Source of the DNA: a virus
Strand: one strand, 5' to 3'
Length of the DNA: 42,417 bases
Virus genome (UHGV): UHGV-0385671
Part shown: piece by piece, positions 5,235 through 12,637 of the stretch
How the letters are laid out: each line of letters opens with the position of its first letter
Position numbering within the stretch: position 1 is the first letter of the stretch
Notes under the pieces: model-generated
Told to the model about the DNA's origin: nothing
The model's database searches: none
What the model saw: only the letters and a program-made list of their open reading frames with translations
Translations under genes and position numbers: made by a program

Positions 5235-5869
5235 GTATCAGACACTGTATTGGTAGGAAGGCCTATCATTTCATTTAATGTCTCTCGATGTACCGCTGGT
5301 GCTAAAGGGACTGGCGGTGCGTCTGTTGGAAGCAGTTCTTTAGCTTCGGGCCATACATCCAGTAATCGTTTTACTGTCCGAACTTTATTTAGAGCCGCGC
5401 TGACGTTCTGTATGATTTCGGTTTCATCACTTTTAATTTGTGTGTAGAGAGCATCAAAGCTATAAAACTCCGTTACCAGAGGATCTTCGCCAAGTAGAGT
5501 AAATTCTGCAGGTGCTATTTTATTAATATGCTCGGGGGCTCCTGATTCATAACCTCTGTAGTTGCCATTGAAATAAATGTTTGCTCTGGCTCCAGCCAGA
5601 TTGAGATATATGCAGCAATCTTTTCGAATTAAAGAACTATTGGTTTTTAATGAATCAGGGATTTTTGTGACCATGGATTCAATCTTTTTTATATTTTTTA
5701 ATATTTCAGCTTCTTTCTCTACGCCCCCGATAGCTGCAAGCCGAACACGTTCGGCCCATTCAACACGAGCAGCTCGTAGTGCTGATTTACGTTTGGGGAT
5801 ACCCGCTTTCTCAAGTGCGTTATTGATGATTTGAGTTTTAAGGTGATTAGTTAATACGGGCTGTGACAT
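5228..5869 (-). CDS. Hypothetical early protein (213 aa); start chosen at ATG 5869 rather than the GTG at 5899
   Basis: GAGGGAAAG SD upstream of ATG 5869; the longer GTG start lies inside a perfect hairpin. Confidence 0.55.
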   Translation of the reverse strand: MSQPVLTNHLKTQIINNALEKAGIPKRKSALRAARVEWAERVRLAAIGGVEKEAEILKNIKKIESMVTKIPDSLKTNSSLIRKDCCIYLNLAGARANIYFNGNYRGYESGAPEHINKIAPAEFTLLGEDPLVTEFYSFDALYTQIKSDETEIIQNVSAALNKVRTVKRLLDVWPEAKELLPTDAPPVPLAPAVHRETLNEMIGLPTNTVSDTQ

Positions 5870-6484: not shown

Positions 6485-7786
6485 TCAGATGAGGTCTGCG
6501 GTTAGCGTATCGTCGGATACGTCGTCGAAATCATTTACAGGGTTGATATTGAGTGCGGGGCGTGGGTCTGACTCGGGAACGACGGTGGGTTTACCATCAG
6601 CTCGTGTTATCAGTGCCTCGACTTTTGACCAACGGCGCGGACTGGCCTTTTTGATAAGTTTTTCGGCTTTTGTGGGACTAATAAGTTTAAAGTCGAATAC
6701 TTCTTCAGTTTTGTACCTGAACTGGTCTTTCAGCAGCGCGCGGGCGGCTTCTTCATCGCTCCAGGCGCGATTACCCTGTTTACCAGTAACCAACTTAAAG
6801 CCCGGTACCGGATGCCCGGCGTTCAGCTCACTGTTCACCCGGTCGCGCACAGCCTTTAGCCAGGATTCAATAAAGTCGGCCTGGCTGTAGATCTCCGCCA
6901 GTTCCTCGATTGTCAGAAGCGGTACGCGCGAGCTGGCATCAGTGATGATTTCACTAACCGGTTTGGTCAGGTCTTCGAAATCGCTGGCAGCAGTTTGCAT
7001 GTGCTGCATTTTCTGAGCAATGCAGACTGCTTTGGCTTTGCAGAATCGGCACTGTTTTTCCCCGGGGGTGAAGTTTTCCAGCGGCAGGGTTTCGACGCCT
7101 TCGCAATCGGCGATGTTGAACATCACGATTACACTGGCTGCCGCTTCCTGCGCCCGTTCGCCGAACGCCTGGAGCTCTTCCACCGTCAGAGCCCACTCTG
7201 AAACGTGGTTAAGCCGCGGCTGGTGGATGAACAGGCGCACCGTCTCGAAGTCGTACAGCATGCTGAACTGTTCGAGTGCGCCAAGGGCATACAGCTGCAG
7301 CTGCTCGTTCTGCTCGGCGTCGACCCGCACACCCTTACCGTATTTCAGATCGTGGATCTGCAGCTCGTTGCCCGCGATGATTACGCCGTCGGCGGTACCG
7401 AATGACTCGTCTACGCCCACGATATGGGAGAAGTCGACACGCTGCTCGACCAGCAGCTCATTGCCCTGCGCCAGCGCCCAAACAGTGTCGACGTAACGAC
7501 CAACGGCTTCGACCATTTCCTCATCTACCTGCGGGCCGGAAGTATCATCCGGGTGCTCAGCAAGAGGATAGGATCCGAGGAACATCGCGACGGTGCAACC
7601 TGCATAGTGCTCCGGGTGGCTCTGGCGGTTGCGCAGCACCTTTTCGGCAAGTGCATGCGCTGCAGTGCCCTCGATTGCGAAAGTTGTTTCTTTATCCGGT
7701 TGTGTGGCCTCCAGCGCCAGACTTCCTGGGCAGCGCATCCATCGATGCGCTGATGATGGAGAAAGTTGTGCGTGAACGTCTGGCAT
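6485..7786 (-). CDS. DUF2800 PD-(D/E)XK nuclease, Cas4-like with C-terminal Cys cluster
   Basis: N-terminal [15 protein letters not shown] motif and C-terminal [10 protein letters not shown] four-Cys cluster. Confidence 0.8.
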
Positions 7787-7788
7787 GA

Positions 7789-8691
7789 TTAACCCTCCAG
7801 TGCTTTTTCAGCCAGGGTGATTACTTCAGCGAGATTTTCATCCGTTACTTCACCAAGTTTCCTGGCTCCCTGTTTTTCCAGAATTGCAATAGCTTCTGCC
7901 CGGTAACCCCCTTTTGCTAACTGGAGGATCAACCCTTCAGCTTGTTTGCGTAGTGCCGCGAAATCAATTGTATGGTCATCTTTGGCGTCATTATTCTGAC
8001 TGGAATTTGCTGCGTCTCTGCGTGCAAATTCTTCCTGCAGCTGAAGGTACTCAACACGGTTGATCTCGATATGGCCTTTTTTAAGCATCTCGTTCAACTT
8101 GCGTAAGGTGTGGAGTTCACTGGCTGCTGTGCCGGATACATTTTTGACGTAAAACGGCCCCGTGCGTTCTCCATCTTTGTTACTGGCCTTTTTCGGCTTA
8201 ACTTCATCACGCCCATCTGCAGGTGCATCAAGTAGCTGCTCGGCAAAAGCACGTCGCTCGCCGATGGTTGGCAGGTCGTCCCAGAACTTAAGAATGTTAC
8301 GGGACAGGTCCAGGAGAGCAGGTTTAAGCAGCGCTCTGGCTCGTTTGACGCCCTGTAATGCGCTGTCGAGAGCATCAATCTGAACTACTCGTTTATCGCC
8401 TTCAGCATCACGGTAGGCAACAGCACGTTGCAGCATGTCTTCTGTGATAGGGGTGGCTACCGGGTAGAAACCAGCCAGTGCGATAACGTCGCTGAACTCC
8501 AGATCATCCAGTGTCATTGCCGCTGACATATTTTCAGTTTCAGTTGCTGTATCCCGACATTCCTGCACTCGTGAAATCGTGTCAGGATGCATAACAATAC
8601 CTGATGCCATTGTGCGGATAAGACGTTCAAGCAGCGCATTATGTTGTGCCAGAAGTTGATTATTAAGTTCTAGACTGGTTTCTAAACTCAT
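7789..8691 (-). CDS. Hypothetical early protein (300 aa)
   Basis: Long ORF in operon with 1-4 nt overlaps to neighbours; no recognised motif. Confidence 0.55.
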
Positions 8692-8870
8692 ACTGTGGTC
8701 CTCGCTACAAGGAGAATGAAAGTGATGATCAGACCGAGCGCAGTGGCAACGGCCAGACCGGTCATCAAATCGAAGTTTTTACGGCGATAACGGAGAACAT
8801 CGCGCCCCGTCAGTCTATGGATGTGTTCAGGTTTCATCGGTTGTATTCCTTTTTTCATATCGGGGAGCAC
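8688..8870 (-). CDS. Small early membrane protein (60 aa, C-terminal TM helix)
   Basis: C-terminal hydrophobic stretch LAVATALGLIITFILLV; overlaps downstream gene by 4 nt. Confidence 0.45.
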   Translation of the reverse strand: MLPDMKKGIQPMKPEHIHRLTGRDVLRYRRKNFDLMTGLAVATALGLIITFILLVARTTV

Positions 8871-8896
8871 GCTGTTGCGAGTGCGCTTTCAGACAT

Positions 8897-8922
8897 AAAA
8901 AAGCCCGTCACTTGAGGCGGGC
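8897..8922 (-). terminator. Intrinsic terminator on the minus strand between the first early gene and the rest of the leftward operon (tL1-like position)
   Basis: GC stem GCCCG/CGGGC followed on the minus strand by UUUUUU. Confidence 0.45.
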
Positions 8923-8964
8923 AAAGACTACACACAGCAATTACATGGAGGATTCAGAGGATTG

Positions 8965-9159
8965 TTATGGGGGAAGGACGACGGTATCCATTCGGTTAAA
9001 ACAAGTATTGGTCGCAGAACCTGTATGTTTGTTAACTAGAGTCAGGCTAACGTTATGCTGGTCGCGGTCAGTTTTTTGGGTAACCTCCATTATCCGTTTT
9101 CCACTGAATTCAATTTTGTCGCCGATAGCCAGGTCATTAACCAGTTTATATTTAGGCAT
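8965..9159 (-). CDS. Small first gene of the leftward early operon (64 aa), function unknown
   Basis: ATG 9159 preceded by GAGGAA SD; first gene downstream of the PL-like region and immediately followed by a terminator. Confidence 0.5.
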   Translation of the reverse strand: MPKYKLVNDLAIGDKIEFSGKRIMEVTQKTDRDQHNVSLTLVNKHTGSATNTCFNRMDTVVLPP

Positions 9160-9445
9160 CTTGTGATTCCTCATTCAGTTCACTTTAGTGGTTCGGCGGC
9201 TTCGACTTGTATTAATTAGACAGTGCTTCGCCGCACCCCAAAGGGAACTTACTGATCCGTATTGCCGACATCCTGTCCCGCCACGGTCCCGACGCATGGT
9301 TTAGAGTCGCGCCGTTCGACTTGTGGCTAAAGATACAATTTGAGTTGTATTGTGTAAACCACAAATATGGTATTTTGTAGGGTGTGAATACTACTTTATT
9401 GATATTTAAGTGAATTTAATTTGTAAGACTTTACAAATGGGGTAA

Positions 9446-9465
9446 GGGAGGCTGTTACGCCTCCC
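9446..9465 (-). terminator. Possible terminator hairpin downstream of the repressor gene
   Basis: 7-bp stem GGGAGGC/GCCTCCC with 6-nt loop 20 bp after the CI stop; trailing U-tract is weak. Confidence 0.3.
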
Positions 9466-9484: not shown

Positions 9485-10108
9485 CTAACGTTTACGGCGG
9501 TAAATACGGTGTTCGATCATTACACCTATGATCTGTAAGTTCATATCTGCACTACGAAAAATAGGGTAATCAGGATTTAGGGGGATTAATTCAAAGTCGT
9601 CGATGCCGATTCCTAATGGGCGGTATTTTTTAAATGTAGCTTCGTGACCGTCGTTTTTGGCGACAACAAACTCCCCTGGTGCAGGACATAGATCAGGATC
9701 GATGATAACGATGTCTCCTTCTTTAAACTCTGGTTGCATGCTGTCGCCATCAATACGTAATGCGAAGCATGTTTCTGGAATGTCAGAGTCTGCCAAAATA
9801 TATTCAAATTCCCCTGTCAGATCTGTTATGTCTCTTGCTTCTGTAAGCTCTCCTGCCTGAACGTAACTTAATATAGGTATGCGTCTGGTACTTATCTCTG
9901 TGAGAGGCATAATATTTTTACCGTTCAGTAGCCAGTCTGGGCTACATTTCAAGGCCTTAGCCAAATCCAGAAGATTGCGTGGCTTTCTGGTTCGTCCACT
10001 TTCGATGGATTCTATGGATTGTTGGCTAACCCCTGCAGAATTCGCTACTTCCACTTGAGTCATTCCTAATTCCAAACGACGTGCTTTAAAACGGGCTGCG
10101 AGAGACAT
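9485..10108 (-). CDS. CI-like repressor: XRE HTH plus S24 (LexA-like) self-cleaving peptidase domain
   Basis: HTH QVEVANSAGVSQQSIESIESG; Ala-Gly cleavage site in VQAGEL; GDSM and KK catalytic dyad; AGGA SD upstream of ATG 10108 (ORF track start 10198 is probably too long). Confidence 0.9.
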   Translation of the reverse strand: MSLAARFKARRLELGMTQVEVANSAGVSQQSIESIESGRTRKPRNLLDLAKALKCSPDWLLNGKNIMPLTEISTRRIPILSYVQAGELTEARDITDLTGEFEYILADSDIPETCFALRIDGDSMQPEFKEGDIVIIDPDLCPAPGEFVVAKNDGHEATFKKYRPLGIGIDDFELIPLNPDYPIFRSADMNLQIIGVMIEHRIYRRKR

Positions 10109-10131
10109 GGGATTAGTCCTTCTGGGTTGTA

Positions 10132-10153
10132 TTAATGTGTATACCCACATTAA
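10132..10153. promoter_or_regulatory. Palindromic operator candidate (TTAATGTG-N6-CACATTAA) in the CI/Cro divergent promoter region
   Basis: Perfect 8-bp inverted arms with 6-bp spacer read directly. Confidence 0.5.
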
Positions 10154-10167
10154 AAACAATTTTTGTT

Positions 10168-10202
10168 GTATTTGACAAACCCCATTCGTTGTTGTCAAAT
10201 AC
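10168..10202. promoter_or_regulatory. Second inverted repeat (GTATTTGACAA ... TTGTCAAATAC) carrying TTGACA -35-like hexamers facing both directions
   Basis: 11-bp arms are exact reverse complements; each arm contains TTGACA. Confidence 0.5.
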
Positions 10203-10228
10203 CACTAAAATTGTATGAGGTAAAAGCA

Positions 10229-10441
10229 ATGACCTTAGCGACCCGAGTAAAAGAACGACGTAAAGAACTCAAAATGACGCAAGTTACGTTGGCTGAGCTC
10301 ACAGGAGTGAGCCAGCAGGCAATAAACAGAATTGAAAGTGGTGTTATTGCTCGACCACGTTATCTTCTTGAAATGTCTATAGCATTGGATTGCGACCCTA
10401 ATTGGCTGTTGTATGGCTCACAAAACGATAAAAAGGCTTAA
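10229..10441 (+). CDS. Cro-like XRE-family HTH regulator
   Basis: ATG 10229 after GAGG SD; HTH MTQVTLAELTGVSQQAINRIESG; divergent from the repressor. Confidence 0.8.
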   Translation: MTLATRVKERRKELKMTQVTLAELTGVSQQAINRIESGVIARPRYLLEMSIALDCDPNWLLYGSQNDKKA

Positions 10442-10444
10442 CCC

Positions 10445-12637
10445 ATGTCCGATAGCAAACCATGGGGAGCTACGCCTGATGAGTGGTTTCATTTCGACCT
10501 GGTATTGGGGAGAACTGATCATCTTCTCCCAGTTGTATGTAACCCCGGTGCGACCATATCCCCTGACAGTAAACTGAAAGCGCTGGGTAAGACGCCAAGT
10601 CGCTATAACCGGGACCGCCAGGTCACCGGTATTGCTCAATGGACCGGACATGTTGTTACTGAGCATGATTTTGCCCGCTGGTCGAATGAACCGGATTATG
10701 GCATCTGCGTGCGTACAGGCCATGGCTGGCTGGCGCTGGACTGCGATAGCGAAGATGAAGACATTCAGGCAGATATTCGCAAAACGCTTGTGCAACTTCT
10801 GGGGGAGTTGCCGCCGCGACGCTGGCGAGCAAACAGTAATAAGTGTCTGTATCTGCTGGCCGTTGATGGTGATTTCCGTAAGCGTATCCATCGCCTGGCG
10901 GGGGATATGGGCATTATCGAGTTGCTGGCGAACGGGCAGCAGTTCGTTGCCTGCGGTACGCACAGCAGCGGTGCGCGTATTGAATGGGACGGCGGTTTGC
11001 CGGATGAACCTCCGGCTATTACTGGTGAGCAGCTTGAAACGCTGTGGCAGCGCCTGGCTGAACAACTCCCTGTGTCGGTAACCACCGAAGCGGGCAACAC
11101 GAAGATGCGCGACCGATCAGCATTCACGCCCGGCGCGACGGATGATACAGCTGAATATCTTGATGCCAATGGCTGGACGCTGCTGGATGGCGCAAACGGT
11201 GAACGATATATCCGCTGTCCGTTTGAAGACGGCCACAGTAGCGGGGGCGACCCAACAAGTACAGTTTATTTTCCTGCGGGAACTGCGGGCTTTGAGCAGG
11301 GGCATTTTAAATGCCTACATGCCAGTTGCGCGCATCGTGATGACGGAGATTTCCTGAATGCCATCGGGATCCGCAACGACGATTTCGAAGATCTGACCAG
11401 CATCGAAGTGGCGGAACCTTTACCGCTGCCTGCTTTCGAGCGTGATAAATGGGGGCGTATCGAGGCAACCATCAGCAACGCAGCCAAAGCAGTAGTACGC
11501 CCTGATTTTGTGGACATCGATATTCGCTTTGACCAGTTCCGCGACGAAATCATGTTTGCCCCGGCAGGATCCGGACAATGGCGGGCATTCACCGATGCGG
11601 ATTATGCGCGCCTGCGCATCACGATGGAAAAGCGGGGATTTAAACCTGTTGGCCGTGAACTTATTCGCGATGTGGTGTTACTTGCAGCCGATGAACAACC
11701 ATTCGATTCAGCAATCACCTGGCTGAACGGACTGGAGTGGGATGGCGTGCCGCGCATCGAATGTTTCTACCATACGCACTTCGGTACCGCCGACACGCCT
11801 TATACCCGTGCGGTGTCTATGTACATGTGGACCGCGTTGGCGGGGAGAGTACTGGAGCCAGGCATCAAAGCGGATATGGTGCCGATCCTCGTTGGTCCGC
11901 AGGGCTGCGGTAAGTCTTCCGGAGTGGAGGCACTGAGCCCTGATCCTGCGTTTTTTACTGAAATCTCTTTTGCCGAAAAAGACGATGATCTCGCTCGAAA
12001 AATGCGTGGTCGGCTGGTGGCAGAGATTGGTGAACTGCGCGGACTTAATACCAAAGAGCTGGAGTCAATCAAAGCGTTTGTGACGCGTACTCACGAAAAC
12101 TGGATCCCGAAATACCGGGAGTTCGCCACCCAGTTTCCTCGTCGCCTGGTGTTCGTTGGTACCACCAATGAGGACGAATTCCTTGCGGACAAGACTGGTA
12201 ACCGTCGCTGGCTCCCCGTGGAAGTGTCGAAAGTCGACGTGAAAGCGATAAAAAGAGATCTCCTTTTACTTTGGGCTGAGGCTCGTGAGGTGTTTCAGCG
12301 TCTGGGGGGGATCCAGTTCCGTGAGGCTGAACAACTGGCAGCGAGTGTCCATGAACAGTACACCATCAAGGATGCTTGGCTTGAAACGGTAGAGAAATGG
12401 CTCGACACGCCAGACCTGATGACTAATGAACTTCCGCGAAATTGCGAATTTTTACGCGCAAGTGATGTTTTGCGTGATGCGATTGGGCTAAATCCTGACC
12501 GCATCGGAAAACGCGAAGAAATGCGAATTAGTAATGTTTTGCAAAATTGCGGGTATAAGCGTGCTCAAAGGCGAATTGGGGGGAAAATGACTCGAATTTT
12601 TGAGGCGGTGTCCCAACCTGTACCAGCCTCAAAATAG
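10445..12637 (+). CDS. Replication initiator: primase-polymerase N-terminal domain fused to a D5/VirE-like P-loop NTPase (helicase)
   Basis: 730 aa; Walker A VGPQGCGKSS; N-terminal region matches the bifunctional primase/polymerase pattern as I recall it; first gene of the rightward early operon after cro. Confidence 0.8.
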   Translation: MSDSKPWGATPDEWFHFDLVLGRTDHLLPVVCNPGATISPDSKLKALGKTPSRYNRDRQVTGIAQWTGHVVTEHDFARWSNEPDYGICVRTGHGWLALDCDSEDEDIQADIRKTLVQLLGELPPRRWRANSNKCLYLLAVDGDFRKRIHRLAGDMGIIELLANGQQFVACGTHSSGARIEWDGGLPDEPPAITGEQLETLWQRLAEQLPVSVTTEAGNTKMRDRSAFTPGATDDTAEYLDANGWTLLDGANGERYIRCPFEDGHSSGGDPTSTVYFPAGTAGFEQGHFKCLHASCAHRDDGDFLNAIGIRNDDFEDLTSIEVAEPLPLPAFERDKWGRIEATISNAAKAVVRPDFVDIDIRFDQFRDEIMFAPAGSGQWRAFTDADYARLRITMEKRGFKPVGRELIRDVVLLAADEQPFDSAITWLNGLEWDGVPRIECFYHTHFGTADTPYTRAVSMYMWTALAGRVLEPGIKADMVPILVGPQGCGKSSGVEALSPDPAFFTEISFAEKDDDLARKMRGRLVAEIGELRGLNTKELESIKAFVTRTHENWIPKYREFATQFPRRLVFVGTTNEDEFLADKTGNRRWLPVEVSKVDVKAIKRDLLLLWAEAREVFQRLGGIQFREAEQLAASVHEQYTIKDAWLETVEKWLDTPDLMTNELPRNCEFLRASDVLRDAIGLNPDRIGKREEMRISNVLQNCGYKRAQRRIGGKMTRIFEAVSQPVPASK

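Follow-up and report, generated by a model that had tools for sequence, protein, structure and literature searches.

A put-like leader and an RprA-like terminator module in the early-left operon of a temperate Escherichia coli phage, a candidate source of a csgD-silencing small RNA

The window analyzed here is the whole 42,417-nucleotide (nt) stretch of DNA from UHGV virus genome UHGV-0385671, which belongs to a temperate E. coli phage or prophage; parts of the region under study are 98% identical to induced phages, for example, vB_EcoM-611R5 (611R5 below). On the minus strand, downstream of a CI-type repressor gene, lie a PL-like promoter, a homolog of the putL antiterminator RNA of phage HK022, an open reading frame (ORF) encoding 64 amino acids (aa), and an intrinsic terminator that precedes the early-left genes and belongs to a module resembling the 3′ part of the E. 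coli small RNA (sRNA) RprA (Table 1). The first-pass annotation of this DNA had compared the small first gene and the terminator behind it with lambda N and tL1. We propose instead that read-through of an RprA-mimic terminator is driven by the put-type RNA and that the terminated product is a candidate csgD-silencing sRNA, a reading to which we assign a probability of roughly 0.6.

Table 1. Features of the early-left and immunity regions, in window coordinates
Feature	Coordinates	Strand	Basis or remarks
DUF2800 PD-(D/E)XK exonuclease gene	6485-7786	minus	after the 300-aa protein gene
300-aa protein gene	7789-8691	minus	after the 49-aa membrane protein gene
49-aa membrane protein gene (phrog_11981)	8688-8837	minus	first gene behind the terminator
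RprA-like RNA module, whole Rfam match	8893-8991	minus	first 27 nt (5′ side) shared with the end of the 64-aa gene
Intrinsic terminator	8897-8922	minus	hairpin 8922-8903, U6 8902-8897
Conserved core AUUGCUGUGUGUAGUCUUUGCCC	8919-8941	minus	identical to E. coli RprA nt 60-82 (23 nt)
64-aa cargo gene	8965-9159	minus	ATG, 64 aa plus stop; all-beta EF-P/eIF5A domain-I-like (KOW-type) barrel
Rest of 5′ leader	9175-9251	minus	holds the second ACAAGTCGAA copy
put-like antiterminator RNA, HK022 putL homolog	9252-9323	minus	about 72 nt from the predicted transcription start (~9323)
PL-like sigma-70 promoter	9330-9358	minus	TTTACA-17-TATCTT; promoter scan
Operator palindrome ATACAATTTGAGTTGTAT	9333-9350		between the PL-like hexamers; perfect, ATACAA-N6-TTGTAT
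Hairpin GGGAGGC-GUAACA-GCCUCCC	9446-9465	minus	directly 3′ of the repressor stop codon; read from sequence
CI-type repressor gene (HTH_3 + Peptidase_S24)	9485-10111	minus	Pfam and PHROG matches
Right-hand operators	10154-10216		10154-10171 and 10199-10216, flanking the PR-like promoter of the Cro-like gene
Cro-like gene	10229-10441	plus	
VapE-type primase-helicase gene	10445-12637		immunity region

The PL-like region named in the first-pass annotation is borne out by its promoter hexamers and by the operator palindrome between them, which around the immunity region is found only at 9333, 10154 and 10199, the last two positions lying between the repressor and cro genes. From the −10 hexamer on, the window aligns with the PL-putL region of HK022 at 79% mean column identity. 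The put-like element starts about 7 nt past the −10 hexamer of the operator-controlled promoter, in the same register as HK022 PL-putL. The window contains a single occurrence of a put-specific pattern that shuffled sequences lack; a second put (putR), sought with the same pattern in the rightward operon, was not found. Residues A3, A9, C18, C26, U28, G29, G35, G36, U68, and C72 have been named for put in a cryo-EM study (PMC9378689), and the numbering used here was deduced from the text of that paper such that the named residues fit. Mutation of A9, of U28 (within the −10-like NANNAT), or of G35 abolishes put activity. Among the critical residues kept in the window are A9, a −10-like AACCAU at +23 to +28 that includes U28, and the G35/G36 junction. 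Relative to HK022 putL, two base pairs have been swapped in a compensatory manner (A5-U17 to U5-A17 and C41-G66 to U41-A66), and an RNAalifold consensus of the window, two relatives, putL, and putR contains 17 pairs, four of which are changed on both sides, with stem II compensatory.

HK022 put suppresses both intrinsic and Rho-dependent terminators over a reach of at least 10 kb and requires no phage protein (PMC9378689). By analogy with this homolog, the put-like RNA of the window is predicted to bind the beta′ zinc-binding domain and to bring about factor-free antitermination. Because a put homolog stands at the start of the transcript, the early-left genes behind the terminator are explained and an N analog is not needed; read-through of the terminator is most likely due to the put-type RNA and not to the 64-aa protein. 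The predicted fold of the leader is not more stable than that of shuffled sequences (z −0.98), which supports neither side. A 10-mer, ACAAGTCGAA, is found on the minus strand at 9324-9315, at the first bases of put, and again at 9210-9201, 114 nt downstream. E. coli genomes H11 to H13 match the window only as far as about 9326, so that the first copy of the 10-mer coincides with a mosaic breakpoint.

The terminator behind the 64-aa gene forms part of the RprA-like module. With cmscan, the Rfam RprA family (RF00034) was matched over the full length of the model at 49.7 bits (E = 1.4e-4 and 3.8e-5), a score that lies below the gathering score of the family. The conserved core AUUGCUGUGUGUAGUCUUUGCCC comprises the anti-csgD site Ib seed and a U-rich, Hfq-type stretch, and the window holds a single copy of the 16-mer TGTGTAGTCTTTGCCC, 0.01 copies being expected. 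When aligned with K-12 rprA, the phage hairpin is equivalent to the RprA terminator hairpin, and the seed, the U-rich stretch, and the terminator of the RprA 3′ region (nt 60-105) are all present in the window. In terms of sequence features, the layout is that of an Hfq-type 3′ module, with GUCUUU, a hairpin, and U6. Stem-loop 1 and the seed of stem-loop 2, which pairs with rpoS, hdeD, and csgD site II, are not kept, and the 5′ half aligns poorly. The genomic setting of RprA, the ydiK-ydiL locus with an Rcs-dependent promoter, is likewise not shared, the phage module being placed in an early operon with coding sequence upstream of it. The predicted fold of the module is no more stable than that of shuffled sequences (z −0.23) and so gives no support either way. 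Two other RNA assignments were considered and rejected: STnc100, which matches a different type of leader in contig L054, and the Pas sRNAs of enteropathogenic E. coli (PasA-D), whose positions are in the nin, Q, and structural regions and whose description is silent on RprA.

The succession of a 64-codon ORF and a same-strand terminator before the early-left genes, as the first-pass annotation had described it, is found in the window. The hairpin, GCCCGCC-UCAAGU-GACGGGC, begins 42 nt past the stop codon of the 64-aa gene and consists of seven pairs including one C·A mismatch, with a predicted free energy of −8.6 kcal/mol. There is no U-run on the plus strand, and the terminator is therefore unidirectional. 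A simple terminator scan reported six sites in the window against 6.2 in shuffled sequences and missed this hairpin, because the loop is too long when only the five perfect pairs are counted. Since the scan did no better than shuffling, the hairpin is unremarkable as a bare consensus, and its reality rests on conservation. Among phage contigs, the hairpin exists in 51 distinct variants, each with GCCC at its start and a U-run at its end. It covaries, position 5 of the stem being occupied by each of the four Watson-Crick pair types, and the predicted free energies range from −5.4 to −15.7 kcal/mol. On reading the sequence between the terminator and the next gene, no promoter was evident.

The target interactions of host RprA have been mapped in detail. 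Site I of csgD (−119 to −84) pairs with RprA nt 60-97 and site II with nt 28-45, as confirmed by compensatory mutations; dgcM (ydaM) pairs with nt 45-75; and overproduction of the fragment RprA60-105, "the highly conserved region", is enough to reduce the amounts of csgD mRNA and of its protein (Mika et al. 2012, PMC3465796). The phage core is complementary to positions −98 to −84 of the csgD 5′ untranslated region, over 13 nt by Watson-Crick pairing and over 15 nt when G·U pairs are included. The computed interaction of the window RNA with csgD site I has an energy of −31.1 kcal/mol (z −5.45), a value reached by 0 of 300 shuffles, compared with −30.2 kcal/mol for RprA. In the module types represented by L123 and L013, the csgD helix is lengthened from 15 to 19 pairs. 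Judged from its sequence, the module is predicted to be the csgD-silencing half of RprA without the RpoS-activating half.

To define the distribution of the module, viral contigs were searched for the exact 22-mer, which was found in at least 120 of them; with exact matching, the core looks invariant partly by construction. Eight representative loci, which cover several unrelated phage types, were compared. In seven of these the module shares its strand with a CI-type repressor gene, lies approximately 400 to 650 nt downstream of that gene, and immediately precedes the first genes of the early-left operon, and this placement holds where the early-left genes differ from those of the window, e.g., in the CPS-53/yfdPQR-like group. 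The eighth locus (L121, ~5250-5320) has the exact core upstream of lysis-like genes, near a tRNA and not beside a repressor. A further, synteny-based sample was picked through the neighboring 300-aa protein rather than through the core and yielded 78 loci with enough upstream sequence. The module is present in 74 of the 78, with the exact 22-mer within 420 nt in 56, a single substitution in 18, and no module in the remaining four, although the sample holds many near-identical phages and the counts are not independent. The sequences upstream of the module fall into many unrelated classes, and therefore there is no conserved promoter belonging to the module itself, which implies that it is read into from PL. 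The CPS-53 remnant of K-12 was also checked as a possible carrier, and the module is absent from it.

Leader motifs were counted within 1.5 kb upstream of the core in 124 exact-core loci. A put leader is present in 14 loci; a boxA and/or GCCCCG..GGGGC hairpin leader in 34 (both motifs in 25, the hairpin alone in six, and boxA alone in three); an AGGCA-loop hairpin with CCGGG/CCCGG or GGUGG/CCACC stems in 47; boxA together with the AGGCA hairpin in one; and none of these patterns in 33. The leaders of the synteny sample were assigned as boxA in 40 loci and put in 24, with 14 unassigned. In the boxA-type relatives, the boxA is a perfect rrn-type GCTCTTTAACAA followed by approximately 190 nt of conserved leader that closes in the GCCCCG..GGGGC hairpin. 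This leader may be an undescribed antiterminator leader, with no N-like gene behind it; an Rfam search of L013 and L028 at the gathering score gave no match for it.

Several further observations concern these leaders. The boxA-type leader is located at 2690-2990 in L123, ~1830-2065 in L129, ~1835-2020 in L131, and 7040-7260 (minus) in L001; it takes the place of put, with GCTCTTTAACAA right after PL and, beyond a conserved stretch of about 170 nt, the hairpin CGCCCCGAUGAUGGGGCG, and it is kept as far as a Sodalis prophage whose neighboring protein is only 30% identical. The AGGCA-loop hairpin is found 20 to 60 nt upstream of the core in L002, L054, and 45 other loci, with an invariant loop and compensatory changes in the stems. 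It is part of the Rfam family STnc100, the match of which in L054 scores 48.9 bits, and STnc100-like leaders are therefore found not only near Q but also at the early-left position. In L054 (13004-13148), the contig end adjoins the SraC/RyeA-SdsR/RyeB sRNA locus of the host, which is a hot spot of prophage insertion.

The similarity of the window to related phages stops at about 8949, just upstream of the RprA-like block, and for this reason the module can be regarded as a unit separate from the 64-aa ORF. Further mosaic breakpoints are found at about 9326. A module that sits exactly at a mosaic boundary, joining unrelated upstream and downstream blocks, could be only a host-captured terminator or a recombination "linker" without any action in trans, and it would then persist as a good stop signal or as a shared junction through which immunity and early-left modules are swapped. 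We consider this explanation unlikely, for neither a plain terminator nor a linker needs 23 nt of identity to the most conserved target-pairing part of RprA. In addition, the hairpin beside the core varies freely, whereas the single-stranded core does not, and the lengthened csgD complementarity of L123 and L013 looks like selection on pairing.

Between leader and module there is a cargo slot for which at least four alternative contents were found, the 64-aa gene being that of the window. An unrelated 64-aa ORF (MNTYELTTKYLPTFEVVENGPDATDYV...) occupies the slot in L028 and L129, a 174-aa ORF (MITVKRAEYLSALTCAGVKG...) lies between put and module in L020 (also L026 and L038), approximately 270 nt without a convincing ORF are found in L017 and L033, almost nothing is left in L005, and 611R5 has opposite-strand genes. 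Because the content of the slot varies between phages, the 64-aa ORF is best described as cargo, the leader and the module being the constant parts. The unrelated ORF of L028 and L129 has its stop codon, as does the window gene, within the C-rich 5′ segment of the RprA-like module, and translation would therefore end within the putative sRNA precursor.

The 64-aa ORF is a real coding gene, as indicated by its homologs, by the distribution of nucleotide differences over codon positions (15:6:28), and by a confident structural model. A GAGGA Shine-Dalgarno sequence is located 8 nt upstream of the ATG at 9159; an in-frame upstream ATG at 9174 would make the ORF 69 aa long. The homologs, of 66 to 95% identity, come from prophages of E. 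coli, Klebsiella, and Salmonella and form only eight clusters. Their genes are always the first ORF behind the repressor in phages of the same family, with differing immunity regions. The AlphaFold2 model is six-stranded and all-beta, with a mean predicted local distance difference test (pLDDT) score of 92.3, and all of the top 50 PDB structure matches are EF-P or eIF5A family proteins (query-normalized TM-scores of 0.71 to 0.84), the match falling on the N-terminal KOW-like domain. In a sequence-profile search of the PDB, EF-P domain I was the best match and was in register (29-58 to 29-58), with a nonsignificant E value of 0.22; no family for the protein was found in Pfam or PHROGs. The fold is common to many small uncharacterized phage proteins and for this reason says little about function.

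In the same nonsignificant alignment (E = 0.22), R32 of the 64-aa protein is aligned with R32 of EarP-type EF-P. This Arg32 is invariant in the family and falls on the Arg32 that is rhamnosylated by EarP in some EF-Ps; the loop K29-D31-R32-D33-H35 is also invariant across the family. A role for the 64-aa protein as a decoy of EF-P domain I is only a guess.

The first-pass annotation had remarked on the lack of an Arg-rich motif in the 64-aa protein, and this was confirmed: it contains three Arg in total and at most two per 15-residue window, has nine Lys + Arg against seven Asp + Glu (net charge about +2), and shows no Arg-rich motif by a lambda N-type criterion. It is a compact all-beta barrel, unlike a disordered Arg-rich peptide. 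The annotation had nevertheless entertained the protein as a possible antiterminator of another kind, one acting on the terminator behind its own gene as N does at tL1. The gene is indeed the first after the PL-like promoter, with the terminator directly behind it, and it keeps this position behind different immunity regions in the Klebsiella and Salmonella relatives. The KOW-type barrel is, moreover, the class to which the NusG C-terminal domain belongs. We nonetheless regard an antiterminator function of the 64-aa protein as very improbable, since the Arg-rich motif is missing, read-through is already accounted for by the put homolog, and the fold is generic among small phage proteins. The same put, terminator, and downstream operon are found with other cargo or almost none (L005, L017/L033, and L020), and antisense genes take the place of the 64-aa gene in 611R5. 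What survives of the N-tL1 comparison is that a promoter-proximal terminator calls for antitermination or leakiness; the protein itself is not N-like. The evidence agrees better with the second suggestion of the annotation, an early function of an unrelated kind combined with attenuation, and the 64-aa protein is most likely a cargo gene product unrelated to antitermination.

There is scarcely any room for the idea that the phage RNA is a full replacement of RprA that activates RpoS translation as RprA, DsrA, ArcZ, and StxS do, for although the Rfam alignment covers the whole RprA model and the AUCCCCUGA stretch of RprA is kept in several relatives (L028, L023, and L042), the rpoS leader pairing of the window and five other phage variants is no better than that of shuffled sequences (z −0.9 to +0.6, against −2.0 for RprA at its known site), the rpoS-pairing AACGAAUU stretch is absent, and so is stem-loop 1.

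According to the reading that we prefer, put-driven read-through of an RprA-mimic terminator, the early-left operon of this temperate E. coli phage would be built as in HK022 and not as in lambda. Once the operator is free of the CI-type repressor, RNA polymerase would start transcription at about 9323, and the first 72 nt or so would form a put-type RNA that, from its homology to HK022, is predicted to bind the polymerase and render it resistant to terminators without the help of a phage protein. The transcript would next cross the variable cargo slot, here occupied by the gene for the 64-aa beta-barrel protein, and would then enter the module that copies the 3′ domain of host RprA, with its seed, U-rich stretch, and GC hairpin with a U-tail. 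Polymerases that carry put would read through, and the replication and recombination genes would be expressed. Polymerases without put would be expected to stop at 8897 and to release an RNA with an RprA(60-105)-like 3′ end of the Hfq type, which is predicted to be bound by Hfq and could act as such or after trimming by RNase E. Its predicted action is the repression of csgD, and probably of dgcM too, so that less curli and biofilm matrix would be made during induction or infection; the terminated RNA is not predicted to activate rpoS.

Several points speak against this proposal. The Rfam score of the window module is below the RprA gathering score of 70 bits, the 5′ two thirds of RprA are unmatched, and the variant in L054, at 54.5 bits, is also below the gathering score. 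The invariance of the 22-mer in the exact scan is partly a product of the search, and the counts from the synteny sample suffer from the near-identity of many of its phages. A few relatives, of which L126, L129, and L131 are more distant ones, depart from the rule: truncated cores are found in L126 (a 2-nt deletion) and in L129 (Pluralibacter, with a shortened core), and the module is missing from L131 (Sodalis), L161, and L181. The hairpin of the window is among the weakest variants, given its predicted free energy, its C·A mismatch, and its run of only six U. Pairing with csgD site II has been lost (−11.1 kcal/mol, no better than shuffled sequences), and damage to two of three sub-sites (Ia, Ib, and II) relieves the translational inhibition of csgD (Mika et al., PMC3465796). 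Finally, an efficient put would allow few polymerases to stop, and the yield of sRNA could be low.

A wider generalization can be put forward only tentatively, with somewhat less than even confidence. Many temperate enterobacterial phages may have captured the 3′ domain of RprA as the first terminator of their early-left operon, behind at least three kinds of leader (put, boxA-type, and STnc100-like). Each induction or infection would then free an Hfq-type sRNA that silences csgD, and with it curli and matrix, but does not activate RpoS, stripping away a matrix that traps virions or shields neighboring cells. If the terminated early transcript does work as a mimic of RprA60-105, phage induction would be coupled without intermediary to the regulator that governs curli and biofilm, through a seed that has been validated by compensatory mutations in the host RNA, and the module would show plainly how part of a core host sRNA can be captured by a phage. 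The occurrence of the same module behind put, boxA-type, and STnc100-like leaders would also provide a set of candidate antiterminator RNAs at a single genomic position.

The start of the repressor gene was placed at an internal ATG within the 9485-10198 ORF, and the hairpin directly behind its stop codon has a poor U-run and is a possible weak end of the repressor transcript. Comparison with 611R5 places a DNA polymerase gene farther along the early-left arm; in 611R5, a gene annotated as a TIR-like domain protein adjoins the DNA polymerase gene of this arm, in a region that flanks the counterpart of the window (L001 1-465; ON470588 3105-3866). Rfam matches to mir-223 on both strands at 10141-10229 (32.8 and 28 bits) represent the 23-nt inverted repeat of the rightward operators and not an RNA gene, and the matches to SCARNA18 and anti-hemB in the window are weak and spurious. 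A tRNA scan of the window found none, and an origin of the GC-rich leader from a tRNA or attachment site was rejected.

Put elements and phage sRNAs born at terminators are both already known. In our literature search we found no description of a phage-borne RprA homolog or of a phage sRNA directed at csgD; the term "RprA-like" was not met, and the papers that name RprA together with prophages or lambdoid phages describe no phage RprA. A 2025 review of phage small RNAs does not mention RprA, csgD, or curli, and a 2026 survey of Pas and STnc100 RNAs does not mention RprA. Among the matches listed, E. coli RefSeq genomes have no noncoding RNA annotated where they match the window, and with the module scoring below the Rfam gathering score, this is a point for genome annotation. 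The loss of the module from the CPS-53 remnant may be one reason that interactome studies in K-12 have not met it.

The closest known arrangement is PL-putL-nun of HK022. The two share an RNA placed directly after PL, with about 80% identity over about 72 nt, two stems with compensatory changes, and residues A9, U28, and G35/G36, and in both the first gene after put is dispensable and has no part in antitermination. They differ in that a putR counterpart was not found in the rightward operon of the window by pattern search, the gene in the position of nun encodes an unrelated beta-barrel protein, HK022 has no RprA-like module, and the bulge of stem II seems to have moved in the window from U68 to an A two positions on. 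Like the nutL-N-tL1 region of lambda, the window has a PL under operator control, an RNA signal that acts in cis from the start of the transcript, a first gene of small size, and, ahead of the remaining early genes, an intrinsic terminator. Its leader, however, lacks boxA and boxB, it encodes no Arg-rich protein, and the signal is of the put type; boxA, in a perfect rrn-type form and with a long structured leader, is present only in relatives.

With E. coli RprA, or its fragment RprA60-105, the module shares the 23 nt of nt 60-82, a hairpin beginning with GCCC, a U-tail, and the way in which it is predicted to pair with csgD sites Ia and Ib. In contrast to RprA, it is phage-borne and would be read into from PL rather than expressed from an RcsB-dependent promoter, and it lacks stem-loop 1, anti-site II, and the rpoS-pairing stretch or has other sequence in their place.

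Two phage sRNAs invite comparison. PreS (LPR1) of lambda is an Hfq-dependent sRNA of the early-left operon (bioRxiv 10.1101/2024.10.31.621285). Like the candidate RNA of the window it is an early-left sRNA ending in a GC-rich hairpin and poly-U, and it is expressed in the lytic cycle; it has no sequence relation to the window element, its position is between ea10 and ral, and its targets are dnaN and alaS. StxS is derived from a short PR′ transcript that ends at tR′ and is trimmed by RNase E to an Hfq-bound sRNA (PMC7547250). StxS is, and the window element would be, a regulatory RNA that an antiterminated phage promoter and the first terminator behind it yield as a by-product and that mimics the function of a core host sRNA. 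StxS is late, depends on PR′ and Q, is made in lysogens, and activates rpoS, whereas the window element belongs to the early-left PL/put system, is predicted to be made on derepression, and has csgD as its predicted target. If the proposed reading is correct, the idea introduced with StxS, that regulatory RNAs can originate from antiterminated phage promoters, would extend from the late to the early-left promoter.

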